Origin: Polyangiaceae bacterium
Lineage (GTDB): Bacteria; Desulfobacterota; Binatia; UTPRO1
Length of the DNA: 64,000 nucleotides
Direction: 5' to 3'
Assembly: GCA_031400185.1 (NCBI GenBank)
Contig: JANNPN010000182.1
Coordinates: 5,895 to 69,894 of the forward strand
Shown: positions 1,956 to 51,582 of the stretch, piece after piece
Position numbering within the stretch: position 1 is the stretch's first letter
Layout: each line of letters starts with the position of its first letter
Notes under the pieces: generated by a model
The model's input: only the letters and a program-made list of their open reading frames with translations
Databases searched by the model: none
What the model was told of the DNA's origin: nothing
Translations under genes and position numbers: made by a program

Positions 1956-2219
1956 ATGAGCGACAACGCGATGAGACGGCGGCTGCTCAAGGAGTACCGC
2001 CAGGCGAACGACGCCAACAAGGACGTACCGTTTCTGCACACCCGCCAACACCTCACGGAGCGTCTGGGGGAGAGCTATGAGACCCTCGCTCCGCACGTGC
2101 AGTGGCTTGAGCAGAACCGCTACCTGCACTGGAAGGCCGCGGACGTGTTCAAGATCTCGCCGAAGGGCCTGCGCGCCACGCACGCGGACGCGGACTTGTT
2201 GGTGGAGTTCCCGGATTGA
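1956..2219 (+). CDS. hypothetical small protein (87 aa)
   Basis: ATG at 1956 is preceded by GGAGG about 14 nt upstream. Codon bias is coding-like. The stop TGA overlaps the TTG start of the downstream gene. No family recognised. Confidence 0.45.
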   Translation: MSDNAMRRRLLKEYRQANDANKDVPFLHTRQHLTERLGESYETLAPHVQWLEQNRYLHWKAADVFKISPKGLRATHADADLLVEFPD

Positions 2220-4105: not shown

Positions 4106-4112
4106 CGAGCCC

Positions 4113-7048: not shown

Positions 7049-7080
7049 ACCGCCAATTCATCGAAGGAGTACAGAACCGC

Positions 7081-8106
7081 ATGTCGCTACCAACGATCGG
7101 CATCACCATGGGGGACGCCGCCGGCATCAGCCCCGAGATCCTCGTCAAGTCCCTCGCCGACCCGAAGATCCGCGAGTACTGCGAGCCCGTCGTCCTCGGA
7201 GACGTGCGCGTGCTCGCGGCCGCCGCCAAGGAGGCGAAGCTCGACCTCGCGTTCCGTGCCGTCGAACGGCCCTCGGCGTGGCGGGGGGACGGCACGTCGG
7301 TCGCCGTCGTCGACTACGGCGACGTCGACCCCGCGACGGTCACGATCGGCGTGGTCGATCCCGCGCTCGGCGCGGCCGCCGTGCGGTACACCCGCGAGGC
7401 GGCACGCTATGCGCTCTCGGGCGAGATCGATGGCATCGTGTCGGCGCCGCTCAACAAGGAGTCGATGCGCGCCGCCGGCTTCCACTACGAGGGCGCAACC
7501 GAGATCTTCGCAGAGGAAGCGGGCGTCAAGCGCTACGCGATGGTGCTGCTGCTCGGCGAGATGCGCCTGCTCTTGCTCACCAACCACATGTCGCTGCGCG
7601 AGGCATGTGACAAAGTGACGAAGGCCCGCGTCCACGAGAAGATCCTGCTGGCGCACGAGGCGCTGATCGCGCAAGGCATCGCCGCTCCGCGGATCGCGTG
7701 CTCGGCCCTCAATCCGCACGCGGGGGAGGGTGGGCTCTTCGGACGCGAGGAGATCGAGGAGATCGAGCCTGCGATCGCCGCGGCGAAGGCCGCAGGCGTG
7801 AACGCGATCGGCCCCGTCCCAGCGGATACGGTCTTCTACAAGACCAAGCAGGGCATGTACGATCTCACGATCGCGCTCTACCACGACCAGGGTCTCGGAG
7901 CGGTCAAGCTCCTCGGGTTCGGCGACGTGGTGACGCTGCTCATCGGGCTGCCGTTCATCCGCACCTCGACCGGGCACGGCACCGCCTTCGACATCGCCGG
8001 CAAGGGCATCGCCAACCACAAGAACCTGCTCGAGGCCATCCGGACCGCGGCCGAGCTCGGCGCGCAGCGGCGTGCCGGCGCCGGACCGGCCGCGAAGAGC
8101 GCCTGA
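7081..8106 (+). CDS. PdxA-family NAD-dependent dehydrogenase (4-hydroxythreonine-4-phosphate dehydrogenase-like; PdxA2-type)
   Basis: MSLPTIGITMGDAAGISPEIL...HDQGLGAVKLLGFGDVVTLLIGLPFIRTSTGHGTAFDIAGKG is a PdxA signature. A DUF1537 kinase lies two genes downstream, which suggests a PdxA2/OtnK-type pairing. Confidence 0.8.
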   Translation: MSLPTIGITMGDAAGISPEILVKSLADPKIREYCEPVVLGDVRVLAAAAKEAKLDLAFRAVERPSAWRGDGTSVAVVDYGDVDPATVTIGVVDPALGAAAVRYTREAARYALSGEIDGIVSAPLNKESMRAAGFHYEGATEIFAEEAGVKRYAMVLLLGEMRLLLLTNHMSLREACDKVTKARVHEKILLAHEALIAQGIAAPRIACSALNPHAGEGGLFGREEIEEIEPAIAAAKAAGVNAIGPVPADTVFYKTKQGMYDLTIALYHDQGLGAVKLLGFGDVVTLLIGLPFIRTSTGHGTAFDIAGKGIANHKNLLEAIRTAAELGAQRRAGAGPAAKSA

Positions 8107-8135
8107 AGCGCGGCCGCGAGAAAGGACCCCCGAAC

Positions 8136-8786
8136 GTGTCATCCCCCGGAGAGACCGAGCCGCAGCGCGTGTGGGACATCTCGGTGCCGAACCGGCCGGA
8201 CATGCACTTCTATCCGGGCGACCCGATGCTGGAGCAAACGCAGATCCGCGCCATCAAGCGCGGTGACGCGGCGAATCTCACGCATCTTTCCCTCGGCGCC
8301 CACACCGGCACGCACGTCGACGCTCCGGCGCACTTCATCGACGGCGCCCCGACGCTCGAGCGGATCGGGCTCGACCGCATGGTGGGCCCGGCGCGGGTGC
8401 TCGACCTTCGCGGGCTCGCCGCGATCGACGCGAATGCGCTCCGCGGCCACGAGATCCAGCGTGGCGACATCGTCCTCTTCCTCACCGACAACTCGGAGCG
8501 CTGGGCGAAGCCGGGCTTCCAGCAGGACTTCACCTACGTGACGCGCGACGCGGCCGAGTACCTCGTGGAGCGCGGGGTGAAGACGATCGGCATGGACTAT
8601 CTTTCGATCGAACAGTTCGGGAGCAAGACGTTCGAGGTCCACAAGCTCCTGCTCGGCGCGGGAATCCTCATCGTCGAGGGGCTCGACCTCCGTGGGATCG
8701 CCGCGGGTCCGTACATGTTCACATGCCTGCCGCTGAAGCTCGAGGGCGTCGACGGGGCGCCGGCCCGTGCGGTGCTGATGCGGTGA
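8136..8786 (+). CDS. cyclase-family protein (kynurenine formamidase-like metal-dependent hydrolase)
   Basis: GTG start 10 nt after AAAGGA. The motif HxGTHxDAPxH (LGAHTGTHVDAPAHF) is typical of the PF04199 putative cyclase family. 216 aa. Confidence 0.75.
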   Translation: MSSPGETEPQRVWDISVPNRPDMHFYPGDPMLEQTQIRAIKRGDAANLTHLSLGAHTGTHVDAPAHFIDGAPTLERIGLDRMVGPARVLDLRGLAAIDANALRGHEIQRGDIVLFLTDNSERWAKPGFQQDFTYVTRDAAEYLVERGVKTIGMDYLSIEQFGSKTFEVHKLLLGAGILIVEGLDLRGIAAGPYMFTCLPLKLEGVDGAPARAVLMR

Positions 8787-10006
8787 CCGCGTTCGCCGCG
8801 ATCGCCGACGACCTGACCGGCGCCTGCGACGTCGCCGCCGAGCTCGCGACGGCCGGACGGTGCGTGCGCGTCGAGGTCGTCCCGGGCGCGTACGGCGGTG
8901 CGGAGGACGGCGGTCTCGTCGTGGTGAACACCCAGAGCCGCGCGCTCGCCCCTGCAGCGGCCGCGGAGCGCGTGCGTCAGGCGCTTCGCGGGCACGCGGC
9001 GCCGCTCGTGCTGAAGAAGATCGACACCGCGCTCCGTGGTCACGTCGGCGCCGAGCTCGATGCCGCGCTCGACATGCTCGGGGCTCCCGGGTTCGTGCTC
9101 GCAGCGATTCCCGCCGCCGGGCGAGTGACGCGTAACGGCTGTCAGTGGTTCGGGGGGCGACTCCTCGCAGACACCGAGTTCGCGCGCGATCCCGAGGGAC
9201 CCGGTGCCGTCTCGTCGATCCCGGTGGTCGTCGGTCGCGAGAGTCGCCGGCGGAGCGCGGTCGTCGCGCGCGAGATCGTCGCCGCCGGCACGCTCGCGGC
9301 GGAGGTGGCGCGTCAGCGTGCCGCCGGCATCGACCTGTTCGTGATGGACGCCGAAAGCGACGAGGACGTGGCGCGCGCGGTCGGAGCGATCCTGGCGCTC
9401 GGATGCGCGGTCTGTCTGGTCGGGTCGATCGCGCTCGCGGCGGCGCTCGCGCCGCACGTCGGGGCCGCGGCCGGCACGACGGCGCGCGCGCCCGAGCTCC
9501 CGCAGCCGGCGCTCATCGTGAACGGCAGCCTCCACAGCCGCGCGCGGGCGCAGGTGGAGGCAGTGCTGGCGACTGGAGAGGCCGTCACGCTGCGGCCGAC
9601 GGCGCCGCATGTCGCGCGCGACGCCGTCGACGCGTTTCGGCATGGGACGACGGTCGTGCTGGAGCCGGCTCCGGCGGTGTCCGTGCCGACCCACGCGGCG
9701 CTCCGCACGACCGAGACCGCGCTCGCCGACGCCGTCGCCGCGATCCTCGCGGCATCGCCGCCGGCCACGCTGATCTTGATCGGCGGCGAGACCAGTTACG
9801 CGATCCTCCGACGGCTCGGCACCGGCGCGATCGCGGTACACGGGCGGATCGCGCCGCTCGTGGCTTACGGGACGATCCTCGACGGCGCCGCCGCGGGGAC
9901 GGTGCTGGTCACCAAGGGCGGCTCGGGCGGCGAGCCCGACGTCCTCGCGGCGATCGTGCGCGGTAACAATTCCCCAACGGTGCGGAGCGCGGAGGACAAG
10001 GCATGA
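8783..10006 (+). CDS. four-carbon acid sugar kinase family protein (DUF1537/DUF4392, OtnK-like)
   Basis: GTG at 8783 overlaps the upstream stop (GTGA). The N-terminal IADDLTGACD motif, ~407-aa length and two-domain layout match the Otn kinase family. Confidence 0.8.
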   Translation: MTAFAAIADDLTGACDVAAELATAGRCVRVEVVPGAYGGAEDGGLVVVNTQSRALAPAAAAERVRQALRGHAAPLVLKKIDTALRGHVGAELDAALDMLGAPGFVLAAIPAAGRVTRNGCQWFGGRLLADTEFARDPEGPGAVSSIPVVVGRESRRRSAVVAREIVAAGTLAAEVARQRAAGIDLFVMDAESDEDVARAVGAILALGCAVCLVGSIALAAALAPHVGAAAGTTARAPELPQPALIVNGSLHSRARAQVEAVLATGEAVTLRPTAPHVARDAVDAFRHGTTVVLEPAPAVSVPTHAALRTTETALADAVAAILAASPPATLILIGGETSYAILRRLGTGAIAVHGRIAPLVAYGTILDGAAAGTVLVTKGGSGGEPDVLAAIVRGNNSPTVRSAEDKA

Positions 10007-11532: not shown

Positions 11533-13976
11533 GACGGTTTGCGCCCACTGCGGCCGCGGTCGGTGCGGTGCTCGGCGTGCTCGCTCTCTTGGGGCAACCG
11601 GCGCCGAGCGGCGACGCGTATCTCTGCTACAAAGGGACGCCCGTCCACGCAGACTTCCTGCCGGCGTTCGTTCCGCGTCCCGGCCTCGTCGTCCTCGATC
11701 GTTTCAGCAAACCGGTCCCGTCCGATCAGCACCGCCTCGACGTGGTGAAGCCGCTCGCGGTCTGCAACCCGGCCGACGCGGGACACCCGGCGAGTGAGAA
11801 CGTGCGCCTGGAAGCCTACCGGACACGGCTCACGCGCACCGTGCCGAAGCAACCGAAGCGCGCCCCGGGCGTCGTCGAGGTGACCGACCAGCTCGGCACG
11901 TTGAAGCTCGCGCTCGCGTCGGCCGGGCGCGTGCTCCGTCCCGCGTCGACGTTCGACGGGCCGAACGGCGCGCCCGCGCTGCCGCCGACGAGCGTCCACG
12001 ACTTCACCTGCTACGACGCCAAGGTCGCGCGCGCACCCCGCGGGCAGCCGGCGTTTCCGCGCTTCGCGCCGACGTCGCTCGCGGTGAGCGACGATTTCGC
12101 GGCCCGCACCCTGACGCTCTCGAAGCCGACCCGCTTCTGCACCGCGGCCGACGTCGCGGGGCACATGCCGAGCGCGCCGTCGCACCGCGGCGCCCTCGTG
12201 TGTTATCGCGCGCACCTGACGAAGCTTCCGGGCTTTACCCAGCCGCGGTTCGTGAAGCGCGTCCTCTCGTCCAGCAGTCGTTTCGGACCGGAGGTCGTGA
12301 CGCTGCGGGCGATCGAGGAGGTGTGTCTTCCGGCCCGGCTCGCGGGCGACCCGGTGCCGACGCCGACGGAGACCGTGCGGCTGCCGACGCGCACACCGAC
12401 GCCGAGCCGCACGGCGACGCCGTCGCGCACGCGCACGCCGACCCCGAGCCGCACACCCACGGTCACGCCGACGCGGACAGTCTCGATCACCCCGACGCCC
12501 ACGGTGTCGCCGACGCCGACGGTCACCGTGAGCCCGACCCGGACGGTCACGGTGACGCCGACCGCCACGGTGACCGGCACGCCGACGGTCACGGCGACGC
12601 CGACGGTCACGATCTCGCCGACCCCCACCCTGAGCCCGACGCCGACGCTCACGCCGACCTCGACGGCCGCGACGCCCATTCGGACCTCGACGCCGACCGC
12701 GACGGCCACGGCGACCGTCACGCCGACGCCGACCTTCACCGCGAGCGGTACGCCGACCGTGACGTCGACGGCAGCGACGCCCACGAGCACGCCAACCGCC
12801 ACGCGCACCTTCCCGCCGACGGCGACCGTGCCGGCGACCGCGACGGTCACGCTCTCGGCGACGCCCACCGTGACGAGCACGCCGACCGTCACCGTGACCG
12901 CCACGCCGACCGTCACCGCGACGCCGACGCGGACGGTGACGCCGCCGCCGACGCTCACCGCGACGCCGACCGTGACGCGGACCGCAACGCCGACGGTCAC
13001 CGTCACGGGGACGCCGACCCGCACGGCCACCCCCACGATCAGCCGGACGCCGACGCCCACCAAGTCGGCGACGCCGACGGTTACGAAGACTCCGACGCCG
13101 ACGCTGACCGTCACGCCGACGTCCACCAGGACGGCAACGCCGACGGTGACCAAGACGGCGACGCCGACGAGGACGACGACCCCCACGCCGACGCGGACCG
13201 CGACCCCGACGGTGACCAAGACACCGACGCCGACGAAGACCACGACGCCGACCCCCACGCGGACGGCAACGCCGACCGCCACCAGGACGGCGACGCCGAC
13301 GAAGAGCGCGACGCCGACGGTGACCAAGTCGCCGACGCCGACGCTCTCGGCGACGTCGACGCCGACCTTCACCCCGAGCCCGTCGCCGACCGTGTCGCCG
13401 GTCGGCGATCCGATCGCGCTCGACGTGGATCCCGACAACAAGACGATCACGCAGGGCACGACGGCGAACGGGCAGTGCACGGCGATCTACGCGAACGGTG
13501 CGACCCGGAACTACACGCAGCGGGTCGAGTGGTCGTCGAGCGATCCTGCGATCGCCTCGGTCACCAACACCGAAGGCCAGCGCGGCAAGGTGACCGGGAA
13601 CGGTCCCGGAACGATCGTGCTGCGCGCGCGCGATCCGATCACCGGCATCGACTCGAACGACTCGGGGCAGAACGGCTCCATCACCGTGCTCGGCCTGCTC
13701 GAAACCATCGAGCTCACGCCGGTGAGCACGACCGACACCGTTGGCGACGAGCGTTTCTTCACCGCGAAGGGGCACTTCGACGGCGGCACCGAGAGTAACA
13801 TCACCCAGGACGTCGATTACTCGTCGTCCGACCCCAACGTCGCGGTCGCGCCCAACGAGGCCGGGAGGAAGAGTCGTGTGGTCGCGGTCGGGCCTGGCGT
13901 TGCCACCATCCGCGCGACCGATCCAACGACCGGTGTCGTCAGCAACGATGCCACGTACACCGTCGAGGCGCCGTGA
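11529..13976 (+). CDS. secreted multidomain surface protein: signal peptide, 2x novel Cys-containing ~115-aa module, ~350-aa Pro/Thr-rich linker, C-terminal Big_2 (Ig-like) domains
   Basis: N-terminal signal peptide. Two tandem copies of a module starting CYKG / CYDAK with conserved Cys positions. A P/T/S/A/V-only region spans aa ~275-625. The C-terminus has Big_2-like repeats (NYTQ..W.SS.P..A.V...G). It is a paralog of the next gene. Confidence 0.8.
12351..13404 (+). repeat. in-frame tandem degenerate repeats (ACGCCGAC-rich) encoding a Pro/Thr-rich linker
   Basis: About 1 kb of short imperfect repeats translating to (T/S/A/V)PT(P/A/V) units. The antisense and alternative frames give long spurious Arg/Gly-rich or Asp-rich ORFs. 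Confidence 0.8.
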
Positions 13977-41827: not shown

Positions 41828-42955
41828 TCAGGCCGTGGCGCGGCGGCCGAGAGCGATCAACGCGATCGAGAAGGCATACGTCCCGAGCGCCGACATCCAG
41901 AGGAACCAGTCGAGGCGTCCGACGAGCGTCAAGCCCACGAGCAGATAGGCGAACTCCCGGCTCGCGAAGGCCTCGTAGACCGTTCGTTGGGCGTCTGTCG
42001 GAGGCCGGCGCACGATACACGTGTAGACGGTCGTCATCGCCAGCAGCACGCCGGTGAGGAGCACCCAACCCAGCACGGCTACGGTCGGGTCGCCGCTCCG
42101 ACGATGGAGGCCGCTCGCGATGCCGCCGAAGAGGAAGAGGTGGACGAGGTTGTCCCCGAGGATGTCGAGCTTCGCGCCGAAGGAGCTCTCGCGAAACGTG
42201 AGACGGGCGATCTCGCCGTCGCAGCCGTCGATGATCGTCGAGAGCAGGAAAAGCAGCGCGCCGCACATCGCTGCACCCGGCGTCCCGCGCGCGAAGCACA
42301 ACCCGCCGGCGATCCCGATGGCGATCGATGCAATCGTCACCTGGTTCGGCGAAATGCCCGTCGGGAGCAGCAGGCGTGTGAGCGCGCGTGAGAAGCGCCG
42401 GTCGACCACGCGTGTGAACCAGCCGTCGCCGGTACGCCCGATGCGCGCGTAGAGCGCGAGCTCGGCGGCGATGCGGCTTTCGGCGTCGCGCGCGCTCGTC
42501 ACGAGCCCGCCCGGGGGCGGGGTCCACGCGGTCGCCTCCGCGGGCGGTGCCAGGGAGGCGGCATCCCGAGCGTCGCGGAGCTGCGCAGCGACGGTTGCGC
42601 CGTCTGCGCGCCAGAGGCAGGCCGGGGGCGGCGCCGCGAGGGGACGCGACTCGGTGGCGGCGACGAGCGCGGCGATCGTCGCGGGCTCCGTGACGGTGGT
42701 CGCCGCAGTGACCACGACGATCGCCGTGGCGTCGTAGCTCCATGGAGGCGCGTCAGCGCTCCAGCCGACCGCGATCTGCGGCAGGCGCAAGGGCATCGAC
42801 GGTCGCGGGCCCACGCAGAGGAGCCGTCGCGCGCCCGCGCGTGCGAGCACGAACGCGGCGCGTTCCACGAGGCGAAGACCACCGACGATCTCGCCCGCGC
42901 CCGGACCGACTGCGATCACCCCGTCAAAGGGCGGCCCGGCCCCGGCGTCAGGCAC
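41828..42955 (-). CDS. fusion protein: N-terminal nucleotidyltransferase-like domain + CDP-alcohol phosphatidyltransferase (DIPP-synthase-like architecture)
   Basis: The C-terminal TM region carries the CDP-OH phosphotransferase motif DGCDGEIARL...G...D...D. The N-terminal ~215 aa are soluble with a degenerate G-rich loop (IAVGPGAGEIVGGLRL). The GTG start overlaps the upstream stop. Confidence 0.8.
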   Translation of the reverse strand: MPDAGAGPPFDGVIAVGPGAGEIVGGLRLVERAAFVLARAGARRLLCVGPRPSMPLRLPQIAVGWSADAPPWSYDATAIVVVTAATTVTEPATIAALVAATESRPLAAPPPACLWRADGATVAAQLRDARDAASLAPPAEATAWTPPPGGLVTSARDAESRIAAELALYARIGRTGDGWFTRVVDRRFSRALTRLLLPTGISPNQVTIASIAIGIAGGLCFARGTPGAAMCGALLFLLSTIIDGCDGEIARLTFRESSFGAKLDILGDNLVHLFLFGGIASGLHRRSGDPTVAVLGWVLLTGVLLAMTTVYTCIVRRPPTDAQRTVYEAFASREFAYLLVGLTLVGRLDWFLWMSALGTYAFSIALIALGRRATA

Positions 42956-44027
42956 CGCTGGTCGGATTCGAGGGCCGCGCGTCCGGGACCGGGTCGACCA
43001 GTATCACGCGCACGCCGCCGTTCGCCGCCGATTGATAGCCCCGCTCGACCAGCCGGCAGCAGGCTTCGGCCTCGCGAAAGTTCTCGCCGCGCACGTTCGG
43101 ATCGTGCAGCTCCTGATGGAAGTCATCGAGCATCGTCGCGAACCAGTCCGCGTGATACGAGCCTGCGGACAGCGGCTGCGCGAAGGCCGTTTCAACCGGC
43201 GTGCGCTCGCCGACCGCCGTGACGAGCGTCCGATCGGCGATCGTCACGCTGCCGAGCGCGCCGGTCACCATGCCGGTGTTGCGGCGCACGTCACCCGCCC
43301 ACGTGAGGAAGATTTCTGCCCGCGCATTCGGGAACTCGACCGCGCACTCGGCGGTGTCCTCGACGCCGGCCGTAGTGAACTTGCGCTGCGAGGTGACGGC
43401 TGTGATCGCGACCGGGTCGGCGTCGACGAGATGCCGTGCCAGATAAAAGGCATGCCATCCGTGGTCCACCATGATGCCGCCGCCGGCGCGCGCAGGATCG
43501 AGCCGCCATGTGCCGCCGTCGCCTGCGTCCGTCGGCGGTGTCGTACGGATCGTCTCGAGCCGGACGTGCGTGACCGCGCCGACGTCGCCGCGCCGGAGCG
43601 TGCGCTTCGCTGTGCGGATGATCGGCGCGTACTTCCAGTTGTGGGTCGTGAACACCACCGCGCGCGCCGCGCTCGCGGCGCTCCGGATTCGGCGGCACTC
43701 GTCCCACTGGACCGTGAGCGGCTTTTCGCAGAGCACGTGCACCCGTTTTGCGAGGGCCTCGAGCACGATCGCGGTGTGGCTCGCGGGCGGGGTCGCGACG
43801 TCGACGAAGTCGAGGCGCTCGGTCTTGAGCAGCTCCTCGAGCGTCGCGTAACGCTTCGCGGTTGGCAGGAGCTCGGCCGCAAGCGCGAGGCGCGCCTCGT
43901 CGGAATCGCACACGGCCACGATCGTGAACTGCCGGTGCTTCTGCCATGCGGGCAGGTGGCCCTCGACGGCGACGTTGCCAAACCCGACGATCGCGCCGCG
44001 AAGCGGTCGGGGACGTCGCGCGGTCAC
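42948..44027 (-). CDS. Gfo/Idh/MocA family NAD(P)-dependent oxidoreductase (inositol/sugar dehydrogenase-like)
   Basis: GAIVGFGNVAVEGHLPAW Rossmann motif and the EKP motif (VLCEKPL). ATGA overlap with the upstream aminotransferase. Confidence 0.85.
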   Translation of the reverse strand: MTARRPRPLRGAIVGFGNVAVEGHLPAWQKHRQFTIVAVCDSDEARLALAAELLPTAKRYATLEELLKTERLDFVDVATPPASHTAIVLEALAKRVHVLCEKPLTVQWDECRRIRSAASAARAVVFTTHNWKYAPIIRTAKRTLRRGDVGAVTHVRLETIRTTPPTDAGDGGTWRLDPARAGGGIMVDHGWHAFYLARHLVDADPVAITAVTSQRKFTTAGVEDTAECAVEFPNARAEIFLTWAGDVRRNTGMVTGALGSVTIADRTLVTAVGERTPVETAFAQPLSAGSYHADWFATMLDDFHQELHDPNVRGENFREAEACCRLVERGYQSAANGGVRVILVDPVPDARPSNPTSGA

Positions 44028-45346
44028 GGCGTCCCGAGCTCGGCTGCGGCGCGCGCGAACACCTGGTCCAGGATGTCGAGACCATGGTCCGCTTGCTCGC
44101 GCGTGATCGTGAGGGGCGGATTGATCCGGACGCGCGGGAAGTAGCCCATCATCAGGAGGCCGTGCTGCAGTGCATCGAGGAAGATGTGCTCGGTCGCGGA
44201 TCGGCTCAGCAGCTCGTTCGTCGAGCGATCGGCGACGAGGTCCACCCCGATCATGAGGCCGACGCCGCGCACGTCGCCGATGAACGCATATTTCTCCTGC
44301 ATGGCGCGTAGGCGATCGAGCATGTGGGCCCCGACTTGCGCGGCATGCTCGACCAGGCCCTCGTCCACGATAGCCTCGAGCGTCGCGAGCGCGGCCGTCG
44401 ACGCGAGGGGGTTGCCGCCGTAACTCGAGGATGACGCGCTCGCACGCGCGAACGGCTCGGCCGAGACCACGTCATCGGACGAGATGAGCCCGCTGATCGG
44501 ATACCCGTTCCCCATTCCCTTGCCGACGGTCAGGATGTCCGGGACCACGTCGGTGTGGTTGCAGCCGAACCACCGGCCGGTGCGTCCGAAGCCAGTAATC
44601 ATCTCGTCCGCGATCAGGAGCGCACCGATATCCTTGGCGATGTCTTGAATCGCGGGCAGGAACTCGCGGGGCGGAATGACGTTCCCCGCCGTACCCTGCA
44701 TCGGCTCGATGACGATCGCCGCGACCGCACCCGAGGTCTGGCGCTTGATCGCTTGGCGGGCGAAATCCGCGCACGCGAGTCCGCAGTCGGGGTAGCGGAG
44801 CTGAAACGGACACCGTGCGCAATCGGCGTATGGCACTGAAAACCGTCCGCCTGGCAGCGGTCCCCATCCGTGCTTCGACTCGTCGCCGATGAGCCCCATG
44901 ACGCCGGCGGTCTTGCCGTGGAACCCGCCCCAAAATCCGACGATCTCGTGCTTTCCCGTGAAGGACATGGCGAGACGGAACGCCGCCTCGACCGCCTCCG
45001 CGCCGCCGCTGTAGAGCTGTGTGCGGCCGAGGTTCCCGGGTGCGAGCTTGGCGATCAGCTTCAGCAGCTTCGCGCGGTTCTCGGTCGTGAAGCTGCCGAC
45101 TGAGATGCGGCGGAGCTGCGCTTCGACTTTCTCGATGTAGCTGGGGTGCGCGTGCCCGAGGCTTGCCACCGCGACGCCGGCAAAGAAATCGAGGTAAGTG
45201 TTGCCGTCGAGGTCGGTGACGGTGGCGCCGCGTCCGGAGGCGAGCGCAAGCTCCGAGAGCAGCGCGATGCGTTGCTGCCCGGGCGCGACCACCGCTTGCT
45301 CGTCGCGGAAGAGGCTGCGGGTCTTGGGGCCGGGTTTCTTATCCAT
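44024..45346 (-). CDS. class-III (GabT/ornithine-type) PLP-dependent aminotransferase
   Basis: Aminotran_3 motifs are present (DEMITGFGRTGRWFG; the lysine in TVGKGMGNG). AAGGA RBS before the ATG at 45346. Confidence 0.85.
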   Translation of the reverse strand: MDKKPGPKTRSLFRDEQAVVAPGQQRIALLSELALASGRGATVTDLDGNTYLDFFAGVAVASLGHAHPSYIEKVEAQLRRISVGSFTTENRAKLLKLIAKLAPGNLGRTQLYSGGAEAVEAAFRLAMSFTGKHEIVGFWGGFHGKTAGVMGLIGDESKHGWGPLPGGRFSVPYADCARCPFQLRYPDCGLACADFARQAIKRQTSGAVAAIVIEPMQGTAGNVIPPREFLPAIQDIAKDIGALLIADEMITGFGRTGRWFGCNHTDVVPDILTVGKGMGNGYPISGLISSDDVVSAEPFARASASSSSYGGNPLASTAALATLEAIVDEGLVEHAAQVGAHMLDRLRAMQEKYAFIGDVRGVGLMIGVDLVADRSTNELLSRSATEHIFLDALQHGLLMMGYFPRVRINPPLTITREQADHGLDILDQVFARAAAELGTP

Positions 45347-46154
45347 ACCGTCCTTGCCTATGGCGAGCGGCCGCTCCGAGCCGGTCGGCGACGTAGCCGG
45401 CAATGGCGTCGGCGGCTTCGTCGCGGCAGCGTGCGAAGCTCGGCCAATCGTTGACGTCGACGAGGAACGGGGTGCCGGCGGGTGTCACGACGAGGTCGCC
45501 GCCGAAGACGTCGAGCCCGAGCGCGGATGCGCCGGCGTGGGCGGCTTCCCAGAGCACGGGGATGGGCGCGGGGATCTCGGATGTCGAGCCGTAGCAGCGA
45601 AAGAAGCGACCGTCCGCGACGCCGTAGAACTTCACGACCACGCCGCCGACGTGATCCTGCACGACGGCCCGTGTGATGCCGCGGGCCGCGAACTGCGCGA
45701 GCGCCTCCCGCACGCCCGACGAGGTGTCGGCGAAAACGACGTCGTCGGCCGCCATCGCATGGACGTCGCCGCGTTTCACCCAGCACGGTGCGTGCTGGGC
45801 GACGTTCGATGCTGCAGTGTCGGTTGCGACGATGCGGGTTCGTGGGTACGGCGCCGACGTCGCTGCGAGGCGCCGCACCGTCTCGTGGCGATGGCAGGCG
45901 CGAATCGCGTCGGGCGCATTGATGACCGGGATGCTCCCGGCGACGTCGTCGAGCACCGCCAGGCTCCGGGGCGATTGGCACATCGCAAGCACCGCTGCCG
46001 GCCGTTCGCGTGCGAGATCGTCGACCGTCCCGAGCGCCATCGCGATGCCGCGCGCGGCCAGCGCATCGCGCGTGCGCTCGAGGATCGCAGCATCGTCGTC
46101 GACGCGGCCCGGAGAGTACTCGGGCTCGCGGAGCATCCCTACGAGGAGCGTCAT
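45339..46154 (-). CDS. ATP-grasp-like protein (putative ligase/kinase)
   Basis: The C-terminal region GVVVKFYGVADGRFF...DVFGGDLVVTPAGTPFLVDVNDWPSF resembles an ATP-grasp fold. The assignment is tentative. Confidence 0.55.
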   Translation of the reverse strand: MTLLVGMLREPEYSPGRVDDDAAILERTRDALAARGIAMALGTVDDLARERPAAVLAMCQSPRSLAVLDDVAGSIPVINAPDAIRACHRHETVRRLAATSAPYPRTRIVATDTAASNVAQHAPCWVKRGDVHAMAADDVVFADTSSGVREALAQFAARGITRAVVQDHVGGVVVKFYGVADGRFFRCYGSTSEIPAPIPVLWEAAHAGASALGLDVFGGDLVVTPAGTPFLVDVNDWPSFARCRDEAADAIAGYVADRLGAAARHRQGRYG

Positions 46155-46161
46155 CGGTGCT

Positions 46162-46860
46162 TCACGGCTTCACGCCGAGCAGGTGCTCGGCGGCGACGAT
46201 GTCCTCGGGGCGATCGACGTCGATGCATGGTCCCACGTCGAATCCGTAGAGGGGATGACCGCGGGCGAGCAGGGCCGCGAGGATCGCGCGAAAAGCCGTG
46301 AAACGTCGCGCCGGCGCGTCATCCGCGAGGCCATACACGAGGGGTTGCAGGAAGTAAACGCCGGCCGTCACGTGGCGTGCGCGCATCGCGTCGCCGAGCG
46401 ATCGAATGCGCTCCGCGGCGTCGACCTCGGCCCAGAGGGGCTTCTCGTCGTCGACCGTTTCCGTGACCCCGAGCACGCTCGTCCCCGGGGGAAGGTCGCA
46501 CGCGCGCCGCACGAGCGCCGCGAGCGCGCCCGGGTTGCACACGGTGTCGACCGTTGTGAGTAAGAACGGCGCGTGCTCGAGGTGGGGCCTGAGCGCGAGG
46601 AAGCTCTCGGCCGAGCTGACCGTCGTACGCTGGACGACGTCGAGCGGGACGGGCCACGCCGTCGCGTGCAGATAGTTTCGCACGAGATCGGTCTCGGCGT
46701 TCACGATGCACGCGATGCGCGTCGCCCCGGCGCCAGCGAGCGCGTCGATCGTGCGTGCGATGAGCGGCCGGCCGCCGATTTCGAGAAGCGGCTTCGGCGT
46801 GGTGATCCCACGCGCCTGGAGGCGCTCGCCGAGCCCGGCGGCGATGATTCCCGCGATCAT
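46162..46860 (-). CDS. nucleotidyltransferase (NTP_transferase / MobA-like; candidate CTP:alcohol-phosphate cytidylyltransferase)
   Basis: MIAGIIAAGLGERL...PKPLLEIGGRPLI matches the G-rich loop and substrate loop of sugar/alcohol-phosphate nucleotidyltransferases. ATGA overlap with the upstream HAD gene. Confidence 0.8.
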   Translation of the reverse strand: MIAGIIAAGLGERLQARGITTPKPLLEIGGRPLIARTIDALAGAGATRIACIVNAETDLVRNYLHATAWPVPLDVVQRTTVSSAESFLALRPHLEHAPFLLTTVDTVCNPGALAALVRRACDLPPGTSVLGVTETVDDEKPLWAEVDAAERIRSLGDAMRARHVTAGVYFLQPLVYGLADDAPARRFTAFRAILAALLARGHPLYGFDVGPCIDVDRPEDIVAAEHLLGVKP

Positions 46861-47570
46861 GCGAGCAGCGCCTCGAGATCGAGGAGCGACGCGAGCCGCC
46901 AGATGCCCGTGGGCTCCGCCGGCATGGTGACCTCGGGGCGTGCGAGCCAGGCGGTGCGCATCCCGATCGCGTGCGCCGGAACGACGTCGCGCTCCCATGA
47001 GTCGCCGACGTGGAGGATGACGTCGGCGGGAAGGGCGAGCCGAGCCGCTGCGAGCTCGTAGATCGCGGGATCGGGTTTGGTGATTCCGACCAGCGCCGAG
47101 TCGACGACCACTGCGAACGGCGCGAGCTTCGCTTCGGCGAGAAGCGCCGGCATGTTGCCGTACGAGTTGGAGACGACGCCGAGACGGAACTCCCGACTCA
47201 GCCGTTGCAGCAGCAGCCGATTGCGATCCCACGCATCCCGCGTCTTGGCGACGAACGCGTCCGTGAGGCTGTTCGCGAGCCTGCGGTCGTCGCACGCGAG
47301 CCGCTGGAGCTGCAGCGCCACGTGCGTACGTACCATGCGGTCGAGACCGTACGTCCGGATCTCGGGCTCGCGGGCGAGTGCGGCGTCGGCGGAGTAAAAC
47401 GCGTCCTTCAGCGCTGGATACGCCACGTCGGCACCGGCCTCCGCGTACAGGCGGACGAAGTGATCGAACCAGTGCTGGGCGTCGCCGTCGAGCGTGCCCC
47501 CGTAGTCGAGCAGTACCGCCGCGAGGCCGTCGCGCCTCCCGACTTCGCGAGACGTCGCCGCCGCGGTCAC
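46857..47570 (-). CDS. HAD-superfamily hydrolase (phosphatase)
   Basis: Motif I LLDYGGTL, motif II VVSNS and motif IV GDSWERD. It is the first gene of the minus-strand operon. Confidence 0.8.
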   Translation of the reverse strand: MTAAATSREVGRRDGLAAVLLDYGGTLDGDAQHWFDHFVRLYAEAGADVAYPALKDAFYSADAALAREPEIRTYGLDRMVRTHVALQLQRLACDDRRLANSLTDAFVAKTRDAWDRNRLLLQRLSREFRLGVVSNSYGNMPALLAEAKLAPFAVVVDSALVGITKPDPAIYELAAARLALPADVILHVGDSWERDVVPAHAIGMRTAWLARPEVTMPAEPTGIWRLASLLDLEALLA

Positions 47571-47589
47571 GCGGCAGAGCTACCAGGCG

Positions 47590-48900
47590 ATGCGTGGCCC
47601 TTCAATTGACGCGCGTAGGCTCGAGCGCTACGTGACCGCGGACGTGAGGGCGGTGGAGATTCCGGCGGTCGCAGTCGCCGAACGGGCGACGGGCGCGTCG
47701 GAAGCACGCGCGGTGGTCTTCGTGCCGAGCCCGCGTGTCTGGCATCGTCAGGGAACGCCGGGCGGGCTGTCGTTGCTCGAGCGCCAGCTGAAACAGCTCC
47801 GCACGCTCGGCGCGAGTCCGGCGTTGCTCCTGGTGCCTGCGGATCAGCCCGAGCCCATTCTGTCAAACGGCCTCGGTCCGGTCGCGATTGCCCGCGTGCC
47901 GCGCGCCACGAGCGATCTGGGGGCGGCGCTCGCGGCAGCACCGGCGTTGCCACACGCGAGCCTCGCGCTCAGCGCCGATCGCCTGGTCGACCTCCGTGTG
48001 CTGCGGGCGCTCGCCGACGCCGGCGACACGACGTTCGCGACGGTCGACGGCGTCCGTCCCGAGCCCGTCGGCTGGGTGCAGGCGGCCGACGTCGCCCGTC
48101 ATGGCGCCGCCGTCACTGCACGTGCGCGACGCCTGCCGCTCGCGTCGCTCGACCCGTACAGCGCCGAGCTCCGCGGTACGGCGATGCCGTACGTGATCGC
48201 GAGCGGGACGACGGCGGAGCGTCGCCGCGCCTGGGACGTGCTGATCGACCATGTGCAGAAACGGTCGCTCGACCTTCCGGGGCAGTACTTCGACACTCCG
48301 TTCGAGAATTTCCTCGTCCGCCGTCTCGCGCCGACCGACGTGACGCCGAACCAGATCACGCTGCTCACGCTGGTCGTGGCGTGCGTGGTCGCCGGTTTTT
48401 TTCTGCACGGCTGGCTCCGGGTCGGGATCCTGCTGGCGCTCGTCGTCGGGGTCCTCGATGGGGTCGACGGCAAGCTCGCGCGTCTGAAGCTCGCCACCTC
48501 GAAGCTCGGCGAGCTCGAGCACGTCGGCGACTTCTTCTACGAGAGCTCCTGGTACCTGACGTTGGCCTCGTATCTCGCGAGCGCAACCGCGCGCGTCGGG
48601 CTCTGGTACGCGGGGCTCGTGCTCGTCGCCTGCGACCTGGCGGACAGCCTGCTCTATTTCGCCGCGCAGCGCCGCACCGGGAAGATGCTCGACGAGCTCA
48701 CGCCGTTCGACCGGCGATTCCGCGCGATCGCGGGGCGCCGGAACATCTACGTCGTGATCTTCGTCGTCGGGTTTTTCACCGGGCACGCGACGACGGCGTT
48801 TCTCTGCGTGGTTGCGTGGGCGATCTGTACGGTCGCCGTGCACGCGTCACGGGTCGCGTGGCTGCTCGCCACCGAACCGCGCCCGCTTCGGGCCGAATGA
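47590..48900 (+). CDS. fusion protein: N-terminal nucleotidyltransferase-like domain + CDP-alcohol phosphatidyltransferase (paralog of 41828..42955)
   Basis: DGVDGKLARLK...G...D...D in a C-terminal TM domain. The N-terminal GGLSLLERQLKQL...PALLLVP is nucleotidyltransferase-like. Divergent from the HAD operon. The start is uncertain; a GTG near 47632 is possible. Confidence 0.75.
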   Translation: MRGPSIDARRLERYVTADVRAVEIPAVAVAERATGASEARAVVFVPSPRVWHRQGTPGGLSLLERQLKQLRTLGASPALLLVPADQPEPILSNGLGPVAIARVPRATSDLGAALAAAPALPHASLALSADRLVDLRVLRALADAGDTTFATVDGVRPEPVGWVQAADVARHGAAVTARARRLPLASLDPYSAELRGTAMPYVIASGTTAERRRAWDVLIDHVQKRSLDLPGQYFDTPFENFLVRRLAPTDVTPNQITLLTLVVACVVAGFFLHGWLRVGILLALVVGVLDGVDGKLARLKLATSKLGELEHVGDFFYESSWYLTLASYLASATARVGLWYAGLVLVACDLADSLLYFAAQRRTGKMLDELTPFDRRFRAIAGRRNIYVVIFVVGFFTGHATTAFLCVVAWAICTVAVHASRVAWLLATEPRPLRAE

Positions 48901-49869
48901 CAGCGCGGCGAACGCCGCAAGGCCGATCGCCGCGCCGGCGAGCTGGTTCAGGCGCAGGATGACGGCGACCGCGAGTCCGGTCGCGGCGTCGAAACCGAAC
49001 GTCGTGAACACGAGGACGCGGCCGGCCTCCTGCACGCCGATCCGTCCCGGCACGAGGAACGCCGCCGAATCGAGCACGAGCGCAAACGCCTCGATCGCGA
49101 GGCACGTCGCGAACGGCGTCGGCATGCCGAGTGCCCACAAGATGAATGCGAGCTGGACGAGGCTCACGAGCTGGCCGCCGGCGTGCCACGCCACCGAGCC
49201 GACGAACGCCCGCGGACGCTCGCGATAGAACGCCGACAGGTGCGCGTCGAGGGCGGCACTCCCGGCGTGAAGACGGTCGGCGAGGGCGCGCGCGACGCCG
49301 AGGCGGCGAACGGCGTTGGCTGCGAGCCCGAAGATGCCGCGCTGCTGCAGCTGCACGAACCCGAAGACGCCGCCGACCGTCGCTGCGAACGCCACGACGA
49401 TCGCAATCGCGAGATCGGGCGTGTCCCGCGTCCGTCCGAGCACCGCGGAGAGCCCGAGCAGCACGAGGGTTGCTTGGCCGAGGGCGTAGCTCATGCGGGC
49501 GGCGACGAGCGAGGCGGCGGTGACGGCGGTCGGGAGGCGCGGGCGTAGCAGCATGGTCTTCACGACCTCGCCCCCGACAGTCGCGGTCGGTGTCAGCTGG
49601 TTGATCGCGACGCCCGCCTGGCGGACCCAGAACAGCAGCGTGAACGGGACCGCGGCGTCGGGCGGCAAGGTCCGGCGCCACGCGATCGTGTTGCAGAAGT
49701 CGATCACGAGCTCGAGCACGATGACCCCGACGATCGCCCAGCCGAAGCCGTGGAGATCGTCCAGTAGGCGGCGCGCGCCGACGTGATGCACGAGGAGACC
49801 GAGCAGCACGAGGCCCGCGACGAGCAATGCCGCCTGGACGGTGCGCGCGGTGCGCAACGCTCCGGTCAC
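48776..49869 (-). CDS. lysylphosphatidylglycerol-synthase-like TM-region / flippase-like domain protein (UPF0104)
   Basis: Eight or more TM helices. The pattern resembles the PF03706 family (...GVQEAG...). The GTG start at 49869 overlaps the purN stop (GTGA). The Arg-rich N-terminal extension was excluded. Confidence 0.65.
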
Positions 49870-50531
49870 GCCGTCGGCGGCTCGGGATTTGCGAGTGCCG
49901 CGTCGCGCGCGGATGTGGCACCGGCGATCTCGACGCGCCGCCCGTCGATGCGCACGCGGCCTTCGGCGATCAGCTGGATCGCGTACGGAAAGAGGCGGTG
50001 CTCCTGGCACTGGACGCGGGCGTGCAGCGTTTGCTCGGTGTCGTCCGGGAGGATCGGGACGGCGGCCTGTGCGAGGATCGGGCCGTGATCGGTCTCCTCG
50101 TCGACGAAGTGCACCGTTACCCCGGTGATGCGTGCGCCATGCGCCAGCGCTTGCCGTTCGGCGTGCAGCCCGGGAAACGCCGGGAGCAGCGCGGGGTGGA
50201 CGTTCAGCACGCGCTGCGGAAAGGCCGCAAGCAGCACCGGCGTGACGAGGCGCATGAACCCCGCCAGGACCACGAGCTCCACCTGATGGGTACGCAGGAC
50301 CTCGACGAGTCGTGCGTCGTACGCTTCGCGCGACGGCGCATCGCGGTGGGGAAGTGAGATTGTGGTGAGGTCGTGGCGCCGTGCACGCTCGATCCCGAGC
50401 GCATCGGGGACGTTGCTCACGACGACCGCGATCCGGGCGTCGAGCCGGCGCGCGCCGATGGCATCGATCAGGGCTTGCAGATTGGTGCCGCTGCCCGAAA
50501 GCAGGACGCCGAGCGCGAGCGGCTCAGGCAT
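49866..50531 (-). CDS. purN: phosphoribosylglycinamide formyltransferase
   Basis: LGVLLSGSGTNLQALID...NVHPALLPAFPG... Confidence 0.9.
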   Translation of the reverse strand: MPEPLALGVLLSGSGTNLQALIDAIGARRLDARIAVVVSNVPDALGIERARRHDLTTISLPHRDAPSREAYDARLVEVLRTHQVELVVLAGFMRLVTPVLLAAFPQRVLNVHPALLPAFPGLHAERQALAHGARITGVTVHFVDEETDHGPILAQAAVPILPDDTEQTLHARVQCQEHRLFPYAIQLIAEGRVRIDGRRVEIAGATSARDAALANPEPPTA

Positions 50532-51582
50532 CGCCCTCGAACGCGAGCCCGCGCGTGCCCCGCACGATCGTTCCGATGCGATACGCGCCGGCGCGGCGAG
50601 TCCGCAGGAAGGCGAGCGCGCGGTCGGCGTGCGCGGCCGCCACGACGAGGACGTACCCGATTCCATTGTTGAAGGTGCGATCCATCTCGTCGCGAGACAC
50701 GCGCCCGTGGCGGGCGATCAGGCCGAAGATCGGCGGCACGCGCCACGCGCCGCGCCGTACCACCGCGCGACAGCGCGCGGGCAGCACGCGGGGCAAGTTC
50801 CCGGGCAGGCCGCCGCCGGTGATGTGAGCCATGGCGTGGACCGCGCCCGCGGGAAGGCGACGGAGGAGCTCGCGCACGAGCGGGACGTAGATGCGGGTCG
50901 GGCGGAGCAGCTCGTTGCCGAGGGCGGTACGCAGCCCGGGCGCTGGACGATCGAGCGGCAACTTGGCGCGCTCGAGCAGCACGCGCCGCGCGAGCGCGAA
51001 CCCGTTGCTGTGGAGGCCGCTCGACGCGAGGCCGATCAGCACGTCGCCGGGGCGCACCGCGCGCCCGTCGATGAGCCGCCTTCGCTCGACGACGCCGACG
51101 GCGAATCCGGCGAGGTCGTACTCGCCGTCCGGATAGAACGACGGCATCTCTGCGGTCTCGCCGCCAACGAGGCTGCAGCCTGCGAGCTTGCAGCCACGTG
51201 CGATGCCGCGGACCAAGTCCGTCCCGCGGCGGACGTCGAGGCGCCCCGTTGCGAAGTAGTCGAGGAAGAGGAACGGCTCGGCCCCGATCGTCAGCAGGTC
51301 GTTCACGCTCATGGCGACGAGGTCGATGCCGACGGTGTCGTGGCGGTCCAGCGCGAAGGCGATGCGGAGCTTCGTGCCGACGCCGTCGGTCGACGTGACC
51401 AGCAACGGTTCGCGGTATCCGCGCGGCAGCCGCGCGAGCGCGGCGAATCCGCCGACCCCGGCGACGATCTCCGGCCGGCGCGTCGAGCGCGCGAGCTTGC
51501 CGATGTGCTTCACGAGACGATCGCCGGCGTCGATGTCGACGCCGGCGGCGGCATAGGTCAACGCGCGAGCGACGTTCGGCAT
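50524..51582 (-). CDS. purM: phosphoribosylformylglycinamidine cyclo-ligase (AIR synthetase)
   Basis: LTYAAAGVDIDAGDRLV...DGVGTK...GGETAEMP. ATG at 51582. The upstream Arg-rich extension was excluded. Confidence 0.9.
   Translation of the reverse strand: MPNVARALTYAAAGVDIDAGDRLVKHIGKLARSTRRPEIVAGVGGFAALARLPRGYREPLLVTSTDGVGTKLRIAFALDRHDTVGIDLVAMSVNDLLTIGAEPFLFLDYFATGRLDVRRGTDLVRGIARGCKLAGCSLVGGETAEMPSFYPDGEYDLAGFAVGVVERRRLIDGRAVRPGDVLIGLASSGLHSNGFALARRVLLERAKLPLDRPAPGLRTALGNELLRPTRIYVPLVRELLRRLPAGAVHAMAHITGGGLPGNLPRVLPARCRAVVRRGAWRVPPIFGLIARHGRVSRDEMDRTFNNGIGYVLVVAAAHADRALAFLRTRRAGAYRIGTIVRGTRGLAFEGDA

Follow-up and report, generated by a model that had tools for sequence, protein, structure and literature searches.

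What use is a nucleotidyltransferase domain without its catalytic loop, joined to a membrane transferase and encoded a few genes away from a nucleotidyltransferase in which that loop is intact? The question is raised twice over by a gene cluster at 41828-50010 of a 64,000-nucleotide stretch of contig JANNPN010000182.1, from a bacterium of the class Binatia (the whole stretch is called the window below; its G+C is about 70%). Two proteins of the cluster, here named A (41828-42955, minus strand, 375 aa) and B (47590-48900, plus strand, 436 aa as its open reading frame (ORF) is read), each carry an N-terminal domain of the nucleotidyltransferase fold followed by a six-helix CDP-alcohol phosphotransferase, and the stand-alone nucleotidyltransferase lies between them (46162-46860, minus strand, 232 aa). 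The answer that emerges is that the fused domains of A and B are relics that have lost the catalytic loop, that the cytidylyltransferase step is by strong inference supplied in trans by the stand-alone enzyme, and that the cluster as a whole is fairly probably a two-transferase pathway for an inositol-derived, and probably aminated, head group, most likely borne on a lipid.

That A and B are fusions of this kind had been proposed in an earlier reading of the DNA made from the sequence alone (the sequence-only reading), and the proposal is borne out by Pfam, by AlphaFold2 models and by structure searches. Both ORFs are genuine genes under conservation: the proteins score above the 22-bit gathering cut-off of PF01066 (A 41 bits, B 33.4 bits), and each has hundreds of homologues. 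The models, built on alignments of 34 sequences for A and 36 for B, are confident (predicted local distance difference test, pLDDT, 91.6 and 89.7), and their secondary structure gives both proteins six transmembrane helices and a juxtamembrane helix behind a soluble domain. That domain is smaller than the approximately 215 residues first assigned to it, being about 175 aa in A (the fold itself occupying residues ~10-175) and about 190 structured residues in B, where some 35-40 poorly conserved residues of low confidence precede it. For both models Foldseek returns essentially full-length matches to AF2299 (4o6n) and IPCT-DIPPS (4mnd), with E 1e-11 to 1e-12 over 374-406 alignment columns and a target-normalised TM-score of 0.76-0.80, and the N-terminal domains match IspD, MurU, HddC, RmlA and the stand-alone IPCT 2xme. 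A phmmer search of the PDB with the single sequences likewise puts AF2299 and IPCT-DIPPS first, and because it aligned the membrane domains alone, the relationship of the N-terminal domains needed profiles, the models with Foldseek, and hhalign to be seen. By BLASTP A and B share 32% identity over 99 aa, confined to the membrane domain, with N-terminal domains that BLAST does not align; profile-profile comparison joins them over their full length at E 5.5e-34, and so the paralogy claimed for them stands. They are ancient paralogues, each family with an invariant motif of its own (ASREF in A, GRRN in B), and both descend from a bifunctional enzyme of the IPCT-DIPPS type, in which a cytidylyltransferase and a six-helix CDP-alcohol phosphotransferase share one chain.

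Two characterised proteins frame what follows. AF2299 of Archaeoglobus fulgidus (4O6M, 4O6N, 4Q7C) has, like A and B, an N-terminal cytoplasmic domain described as 'cytidylyltransferase-like' on a six-helix CDP-alcohol phosphotransferase (PMC4634129). By sequence both proteins hit it best (E 2e-18 for A and 6e-8 for B, at 18-20% identity), and by fold A does so too (TM-score 0.69/0.76). It differs in being archaeal, its depositors describe CDP-glycerol binding and no lipid processing, and neither in physiological role nor in gene context does it compare with A and B. IPCT-DIPPS (4MND; model NF041135), from the di-myo-inositol-phosphate (DIP) pathway, has the same two-domain architecture, is evidently of the ancestral type and is the best Foldseek hit of B (E 3.5e-12), although A and B reach just 63.6 and 40.4 bits against NF041135, whose cut-off is 580, and match it in the membrane part only.

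The loop AAGxGxR(L/M)...PK is absent from A and B, as the sequence-only reading had said, and from all 34 (A) and 36 (B) aligned homologues. The peptides that it had quoted in the place of the loop, GGLRLVER in A and GGLSLLER in B, turn out to be something else: they align with VGGCEIILR of 4mnd and with the strand-helix LGLTLRER of AF2299, and are the strand-helix that comes after the G-loop. What stands at the position of the loop is a remnant, residues 13-32 of A (42860-42919, minus strand; VIAVGPGAGEIVGGLRLVER) and residues 41-65 of B (47710-47784, plus strand; AVVFVPSPRVWHRQGTPGGLSLLER). Whether the catalytic residues are retained, the test set beforehand, was examined with hhalign alignments of the families of A, B and the stand-alone enzyme against 11 intact IPCT-DIPPS-like fusions. 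Proteins of this intact type are the second CDP-alcohol transferase, of about 480 aa and with a perfect loop (for example ALIIAGGAGVRLQTVTGQVPKPLMKLCGVPLIKR), that adjoins B-type genes in 11 related loci of Gemmatimonadota, Latescibacterota and Zixibacteria, and one of them (locus L063, 6031-7482) has a full-length match of 237 bits to NF041135. The A family aligns with them at E 7.4e-62, and a deletion of 12 residues removes 'VRLQTVTGQVPK', and with it the catalytic Arg and the Lys of the PK motif; the central Asp of 'MADHLF' and a segment of the substrate lobe have gone too. The B family aligns at E 1.4e-31, with the glycines replaced (VPSPRVWH), nine residues deleted and the Lys gone, and it retains an Asp in 'SADRLVD', aligned with 'MADHLF' of the intact enzymes. 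The G-loop Arg and the PK Lys are deleted in A and B alike, and therefore the intact loop that would have left the stand-alone enzyme simply redundant is not there.

The stand-alone enzyme has what the fused domains lack. Its loop and PK lysine (residues 7-25, 46786-46842, minus strand; AAGLGERLQARGITTPKPL) read AAGLGERL...TPKPL, so that a separate canonical nucleotidyltransferase is indeed encoded in the operon, and GxGxRL...PKPL is at least 95% conserved across 45 aligned nucleotidyltransferase sequences (35 stand-alone and 10 fused domains). It scores 52.9 bits with PF12804 and 35 bits with PF00483, and its family aligns with the IPCT domain of the intact fusions over the whole domain (E 1.9e-34, 31% identity), whereas its hhalign alignments to A or B begin just after the PK motif, at E ~1e-5. 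The fused domains of A and B are accordingly relics. Their sequences change more quickly than those of the membrane domains (45-49% mean pairwise identity against 67-69%), and they are still under constraint, to judge by their confident fold and invariant residues. AF2299, likened here from the aligned segments, is an earlier example of a CDP-alcohol phosphotransferase that bears a relic cytidylyltransferase-like domain; its cytoplasmic domain is in structural contact with the membrane domain (PMC4634129), and by analogy the relics of A and B would probably be structural caps or ligand-binding modules on theirs.

If the relics do not activate the substrate, a stand-alone enzyme might be looked for where the fused loop is missing, and this is what the relatives show. 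The B-family alignment was scanned against 185,579 species genomes and found relatives in 263 of them; among the best 80 loci, which were kept, a stand-alone nucleotidyltransferase is nearby at 25 of 37 loci whose partner transferase has no loop and at 0 of 11 loci whose partner has an intact one (Fisher p = 6e-5, without correction for shared ancestry). All related loci come from metagenome-assembled genomes (MAGs), and the co-occurrence counts given here and below are not phylogenetically independent. Natural fusions add to the picture. A search of the B profile against 1.84 billion representative proteins gave 361 clusters (50% identity) at E <= 1e-30, and among these P0397 (666 aa) consists of an active nucleotidyltransferase, a relic nucleotidyltransferase-like domain and a B-type membrane domain, so that an active enzyme and a relic coexist there in different roles, and P0501 (485 aa) carries an intact nucleotidyltransferase directly on a B-type membrane domain. 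Together with the IPCT-like alignment, these findings make the gene at 46162-46860 the likely provider of the CDP-alcohol, as had been suggested. IPCT and DIPPS as separate genes are known from the DIP literature.

The membrane domains of A and B differ from their own relics in keeping their catalytic residues, although in B the arrangement is unusual. In A the motif at residues 243-268 (42152-42229, minus strand; DGCDGEIARLTFRESSFGAKLDILGD), DGCDGEIAR-x8-GAKLDILGD, is the canonical D-x2-D-G-x2-A-R-x8-G-x3-D-x3-D with its eight conserved residues, invariant in the 34 homologues. In B the motif at residues 290-318 (48457-48543, plus strand; DGVDGKLARLKLATSKLGELEHVGDFFYE) begins regularly with DGVDGKLAR, in which the first two Asp and the Gly, Ala and Arg are intact, and continues after eight residues as GELEHVGDFFYE, giving D-x2-DG-x2-AR-x8-G-x2-E-H-x2-D-x3-E. 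This departs from the canonical signature in that the Gly and the third acidic residue are spaced by two and not three, and that the latter is Glu instead of Asp; read without a gap, the motif has H311 and F315 where the third and fourth Asp would stand. A catalytically dead B was considered on that count and dropped, on the canonically spaced members of its own family (Gemmatimonadota-type, with GDRLDHTLD), against which MAFFT sets a one-residue gap in the other members. The acidic pair is retained in 84 of 84 family members, and E310, D314 and E318 are conserved. It thus seems that B is probably an active enzyme with a variant motif, G-x2-E-H-x2-D, working like its family. The residue after the conserved Glu, His in the Binatia B proteins, is D, C, N, S, A or G in the B-type genes of Thermodesulfobacteriota (L033, L036, L037, L039-L044, L047-L053), in which the flanking E...D...E is fixed. 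In the intact fusions beside B-type genes a different change is seen, AV or AK replacing the invariant AR of DGxxAR (DGCDGEVAVLTF, DGSDGEIAKLTF; L063 6031-7482 and similar genes in L057, L058, L060, L065, L070, L075, L079-L081 and L085).

The genes around A and B give the transferases their context. Gene models for 41828-50010, made from ORF reading, third-position G+C and family searches, give eight genes, six of them in a tightly packed minus-strand operon with either a 4-8 bp overlap or a 7 bp gap between neighbours. The first is a HAD-superfamily hydrolase of the REG-2-like IA subfamily (46857-47570, 237 aa; motif I DxGGTLD). The nucleotidyltransferase follows, its real start being at MIAGIIAAG where the mechanical ORF over-extends to 47295, then an ATP-grasp protein (45339-46154, 271 aa) which as a single sequence has no Pfam match, a class-III (omega) aminotransferase (44024-45346, 440 aa from the likely start ATG at 45346, with an AAGGA ribosome-binding site; the ORF extends to 45403), an IolG-like dehydrogenase of the Gfo/Idh/MocA oxidoreductases (42948-44027, 359 aa), whose stop overlaps the start of A by 8 bp, and finally A. 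The divergent orientation claimed for the two transferases holds in so far as B diverges from the operon that the HAD gene leads; A itself is the last gene of that operon. On the plus strand B stands alone, and convergent with it, overlapping its 3' end by 54 bp, runs the gene of a flippase-like membrane protein (LPG_synthase_TM; 48847-49869, minus strand, 340 aa from the likely start GTG at 49869, the ORF reaching to 50010). The annotated start codons of the divergent HAD and B genes are only 19 bp apart (47571-47589). Because the first 35-40 residues of B are unconserved and modelled with low confidence (pLDDT <50, the low-confidence part being residues 1-34), its true start may be a GTG farther downstream. 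The promoter scan found no sigma-70-like promoter, the terminator scan gave weak sites only, and the Rfam scan of the window gave no match. The flippase-like gene lies downstream of purM-purN, with a GTGA start/stop overlap with purN (49866-50666, minus strand) at 49866-49869, and appears to be translationally coupled to it; the same arrangement of purN and flippase-like gene occurs in L001, L002 and L007.

The six-gene operon, B and the flippase-like gene are syntenic in MAGs of the class Binatia, and much of the set travels farther. Neighbourhoods were counted by tblastn within 10 kb of B at the 46 loci, each centred on B, that span 20 kb or more. A second CDP-alcohol transferase is present at 33 of the 46, the pairing of an A-type with a B-type enzyme being kept across several phyla, and the flippase-like gene at 32; the complete set of HAD, nucleotidyltransferase, ATP-grasp, aminotransferase and dehydrogenase genes is found at 21 and a radical SAM gene at 26, counts in which the HAD, aminotransferase, dehydrogenase and radical SAM hits may include low-identity non-orthologues. 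MlaC occurs at 13 loci and MMPL at 11, and genes for MlaA, MlaD and PagL are near the cluster in some related loci. The five-gene set is complete in Binatia, Myxococcota, Rokubacteria, Thermodesulfobacteriota, Planctomycetota and Chthoniobacterales, and four of its five genes are present in Hydrogenedentota. In Thermodesulfobacteriota the order is inositol-1-phosphate synthase (MIPS), HAD, nucleotidyltransferase, ATP-grasp, aminotransferase, dehydrogenase, B, flippase-like, MMPL, MlaC, radical SAM, A-like, and so B takes the position held by A in the window, the dehydrogenase gene being followed by either the one or the other. In seven related loci of other phyla (L006, L036, L039, L041, L052, L054, L069) MIPS stands inside the cluster. 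Each transferase also occurs without its partner: L003 and L004 have an A-type gene and the five-gene set without B, and B is found without a nucleotidyltransferase nearby in L005 (radical SAM, B, flippase-like) and in L006 (MlaC, MIPS, MlaA, MMPL, flippase-like, radical SAM, B).

Some features of these relatives are recorded for themselves. The distant version of the cluster in L003 (445-7599; the same in L004), with its A-type transferase only, also has GT4 and GT9 (heptosyltransferase-family) genes with MlaD downstream, a 365-aa protein with weak dimethylargininase-like hits and a 286-aa protein of unknown family. PagL adjoins the cluster in L002 and L006, and a GT2 gene adjoins the flippase-like gene in L007. 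Directly upstream of B, and overlapping it, many lineages have a small radical SAM/SPASM-twitch gene (L005 9006-10004, L006 9252-10022, L007 9036-10004); a radical SAM homologue near B was found neither in the window nor in the other Binatia loci, and against NCBIfam the radical SAM proteins give sub-threshold, generic hits of the MoaA, PqqE, SPASM or Tes-like kind only.

An inositol connection is suggested by several of these proteins; this inositol/aminocyclitol setting, like the unusual motif spacing of B, had escaped the sequence-only reading. The nearest families of A and B are DIPPS, archaetidylinositol-phosphate synthase and PIP synthase. The dehydrogenase has sugar and inositol dehydrogenases as its best named relatives and matches the IolG model; the aminotransferase is 66-91% identical to its orthologues in the other loci. 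The family profile of the ATP-grasp protein finds ITPK4 (E 3.6e-5) and ITPK1 (E 3e-3) as its best PDB matches, followed by RimK/LysX ligases, and in Pfam has weak hits to ATPgrasp_ST and Ins134_P3_kin. The flippase-like protein reaches the general flippase-like model TIGR00374 (46.2 against a cut-off of 43.2) and scores 145.5 bits with the HpnL model TIGR03476, below its cut-off of 195.65. A hopanoid link was entertained and dropped, the HpnL score lying below cut-off, no hopanoid genes being found in the window and the radical SAM hits being generic and sub-threshold. An aminopentanetetrol head group is likewise unsupported, the literature search having given lipid surveys and no biosynthesis.

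The pathway that would account for the cluster starts from a cyclitol whose source would be the inositol-1-phosphate synthase, a gene of the cluster in other phyla and one that the window does not have. The IolG-like dehydrogenase would oxidise an inositol-type cyclitol to a keto-cyclitol, which the aminotransferase would turn into an amine, a compound of the inosamine type, and the ATP-grasp protein would then either re-phosphorylate the aminocyclitol as an ITPK-like kinase or acylate the amine as an amidoligase. From CTP and the cyclitol phosphate the stand-alone nucleotidyltransferase would make a CDP-cyclitol, and A, being DIPPS-like, may move the phospho-cyclitol onto a soluble or interfacial hydroxyl acceptor. 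The HAD protein would strip a phosphate, either from inositol phosphate before the oxidation or from the product. B is read as most likely PIP synthase-like, because it often stands without a nucleotidyltransferase and with MIPS, flippase-like, MMPL and Mla genes; it would combine CDP-diacylglycerol of housekeeping origin with a cyclitol phosphate to give a lipid anchor. The flippase-like protein (48847-49869) could move the finished lipid to the outer leaflet, with MMPL and Mla proteins doing the outward transport in other lineages. A more specific version is offered tentatively: the product may be a lipid whose head group is an aminated cyclitol phosphate (inosamine-phosphate type), perhaps on an anchor that B supplies and that resembles phosphatidylinositol, and this lipid would then be flipped and sent on to the outer membrane. 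The pathway would be common to many lineages, Binatia, Thermodesulfobacteriota, Rokubacteria, Planctomycetota, Verrucomicrobiota and Myxococcota among them, and to further phyla that are mostly uncultured, with a non-aminated version made through the intact IPCT-DIPPS-like enzymes in Gemmatimonadota and Latescibacterota.

Several known systems resemble the scheme in part. Bacterial IPCT-DIPPS relatives with an intact loop adjoin B-type genes in the phyla named above, and the stand-alone nucleotidyltransferase is homologous to their IPCT domain. Unlike IPCT-DIPPS itself, A and B have no catalytic G-loop and Lys, the nucleotidyltransferase is a separate gene, the cluster has an extra dehydrogenase, aminotransferase, ATP-grasp protein and flippase-like protein, and the hosts are not known thermophiles. 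For B the working analogy is with the PIP synthases (PgsA1, RsPIPS; 5D92, 6H59), six-helix enzymes that use CDP-diacylglycerol and inositol-1-phosphate (PMC4634129). Foldseek matches PIP synthase structures at E ~1e-8 where these are fusions to the AF2299 cytoplasmic domain (5D91/5D92, 6WM5/6WMV) and the native MtPgsA1 (6H53/6H59) at E ~1e-4, and with the PIP synthase model NF045883, whose cut-off is 170 bits, A scores 42.5 and B 24.1. A cytoplasmic nucleotidyltransferase-like domain is absent from PIP synthases, and the motif spacing of B differs from theirs. In the streptomycin and rhizopine pathways aminocyclitols are made from myo-inositol by an IolG-type dehydrogenase, then an aminotransferase, then a kinase. 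The window would follow the same logic, a Gfo/Idh/MocA dehydrogenase and an aminotransferase turning a ring CHOH into CHNH2 before phosphorylation, but the likeness is one of logic only, since those pathways use DegT-type aminotransferases and lead to secondary metabolites, whereas the aminotransferase here is of class III and its product would go to CDP-alcohol chemistry. Inositol lipids are considered rare in bacteria, and an alternative route to them through CDP-inositol is still unproven. The candidate for such a route is the putative, unconfirmed inositol-lipid cluster of Bacteroides described by Heaver et al. 2022 (PMC9246714), in which MIPS, a nucleotidyltransferase, a CDP-alcohol transferase and a HAD protein are encoded together, often with a lysyl-PG-synthase-like (flippase-like) gene near. 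With the B. vulgatus-type cluster the window shares the nucleotidyltransferase, CDP-alcohol transferase, HAD and flippase-like genes, all four within 41828-49869; that cluster adjoins MIPS, which the window cluster does not, and by its description it has one transferase and no dehydrogenase, aminotransferase, ATP-grasp protein or relic domains.

Several observations weigh against the inositol-derived lipid head group. The substrates of all the steps have been assigned by inference. MIPS was not found in the 64-kb window, and it lies within 10 kb of B at 6 of the 46 loci. The ITPK match of the ATP-grasp protein is limited to the shared C-terminal Mg-ATP motif, with RimK-type ligases close behind; the PDB matches of the dehydrogenase and the aminotransferase are generic, of the glucose-fructose oxidoreductase type and the GABA/ornithine type respectively. 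Motif I of the HAD protein, LLDYGGTLD, has Gly in place of the second Asp, the D+2 general acid/base, in at least 95% of 36 orthologues, and because of this and its REG-2-like IA membership it may be something other than a standard phosphomonoesterase. The acceptors of six-helix CDP-alcohol phosphotransferases are described as soluble, a constraint on the way in which a lipid could come into the pathway, and the nearest relatives that have been characterised, DIPPS and AF2299, yield soluble phosphodiesters instead of lipids (PMC4634129). The same two facts speak for the main rival, a soluble compatible solute, a di-inositol-phosphate-like or amino-DIP-like phosphodiester as in hyperthermophiles. 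In that case IPCT would give CDP-cyclitol, a DIPPS-like transferase would couple it to a cyclitol phosphate and the HAD protein would remove the terminal phosphate, a final DIPP to DIP step that suits a HAD phosphatase well. DIP needs no second transferase per cluster, however, the host MAGs belong to Binatia, Verrucomicrobiota, Gemmatimonadota and groups like these, their record titles naming no known thermophile, and the flippase-like neighbour is persistent and joined in places by MMPL, MlaC, MlaA, MlaD and PagL genes; these neighbours favour a lipid over a solute, and a solute product is judged unlikely. That the product might instead decorate an envelope glycoconjugate, be it the lipopolysaccharide core, lipid A or a teichoic-acid-like cyclitol-phosphate polymer, and not be a free phospholipid head group, would fit the GT4, GT9 and MlaD genes of L003 and L004, the PagL genes of L002 and L006 and the GT2 gene of L007. 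These glycosyltransferases lie outside the conserved core and none stands beside the cluster in the window, while the core does co-occur with MIPS, MMPL and Mla genes and therefore indicates a lipid cargo, so that decoration of a glycoconjugate seems quite improbable. The lipid-borne cyclitol head group thus remains the preferred reading of the product.

As to the transferases themselves, the soluble domains might still be active cytidylyltransferases with an unorthodox loop, the stand-alone enzyme being then redundant or belonging to another pathway. Both domains do keep the nucleotidyltransferase fold at high model confidence, the Asp in the 'ADRLVD' segment of B does align with that of 'MADHLF', and a few distant B homologues score against PF12804. 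But with the GxGxR Arg and the PK Lys deleted in both families, A lacking the central Asp and much of its substrate lobe as well, hhalign with the stand-alone enzyme starting only after the PK motif and stand-alone enzymes occurring where the fused loop is missing, activity of these domains is barely credible. B could alternatively be a non-catalytic pseudo-enzyme that heterodimerises with A or hands substrate to it. The H311 and F315 seen in strict register would be explained in this way, CDP-alcohol phosphotransferases are dimers (PMC4634129), and A-type and B-type proteins are found fused (P0371, 768 aa). Yet the acidic E310, D314 and E318 and the intact first half of the motif are kept, the one-residue gap against the GDRLDHTLD members explains the shift and many loci have B but no A, which together make a pseudo-enzyme very unlikely. 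Nor do A and B look like redundant isoenzymes of one reaction, of which the second copy is dispensable. They share their overall architecture and keep active-site residues in both copies, but their ancient divergence, a separate invariant motif per family, a pairing kept across several phyla, the existence of an A-B fusion and solo occurrence in different contexts (A in L003, B in L005 and L006) leave isoenzymes highly improbable. The P0371 fusion in particular argues that A and B act together, and with the pairing at 33 of 46 loci lends indirect support to cooperating roles, the sequence-only reading having allowed for sequential action as well as for different acceptors; it appears, as far as sequences can tell, that they cooperate rather than duplicate each other. 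A further fusion, P0454 (702 aa), joins a B-type protein to a radical SAM/SPASM enzyme.

No description of the cluster was found in the literature that could be searched, where searches with its gene combinations returned nothing relevant. Four of its features in particular were not found described: a large B family marked by a variant motif, two such transferases paired systematically, the loss of a fused nucleotidyltransferase domain in complement to the gain of a stand-alone one, and the linkage of all this to a dehydrogenase of the IolG kind, a class-III aminotransferase and an ATP-grasp protein in a multi-phylum cluster with MIPS and lipid-transport genes. The cluster amounts to a natural experiment in which a bifunctional cytidylyltransferase/phosphotransferase splits its functions, the relic domain staying in place and the active enzyme moving to a separate gene. 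The combination of G-x2-E-H-x2-D-x3-E and GRRN is a signature of a branch of CDP-alcohol phosphotransferases that is large, unstudied and represented in at least 263 species genomes, and the natural fusions (A-B, nucleotidyltransferase-relic-B and B-radical SAM) are direct starting material for biochemistry. If the proposed pathway is true, abundant soil and groundwater phyla without cultured lipid chemistry would hold a new, possibly cationic, lipid with an aminocyclitol head group; should the product prove to be plain phosphatidylinositol or a solute like DIP, what is left is a well-documented case of domain decay.

Elsewhere in the window three regions may be mentioned. At 12203-13480 (minus strand) a 425-aa ORF with a coding-like third-position G+C of 0.94 and no Pfam match sits in the strongest stretch of AT skew of the window (+0.26), with negative GC skew. 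Adjacent genes at 2216-5792 (plus strand) encode a 629-aa sulfatase-family protein and a 559-aa protein of the type-I phosphodiesterase/nucleotide pyrophosphatase family, and the 103-nt 'tRNA-Pro' that ARAGORN places at 3166-3268, on the opposite strand inside the sulfatase-family gene, is probably a false positive. At 6712-10006 (plus strand) a PdxA-family dehydrogenase of 464 aa, with an N-terminal extension of about 150 aa, is encoded upstream of an SBD_N/NBD_C protein (8723-10006), a pairing typical of four-carbon acid-sugar kinase operons.

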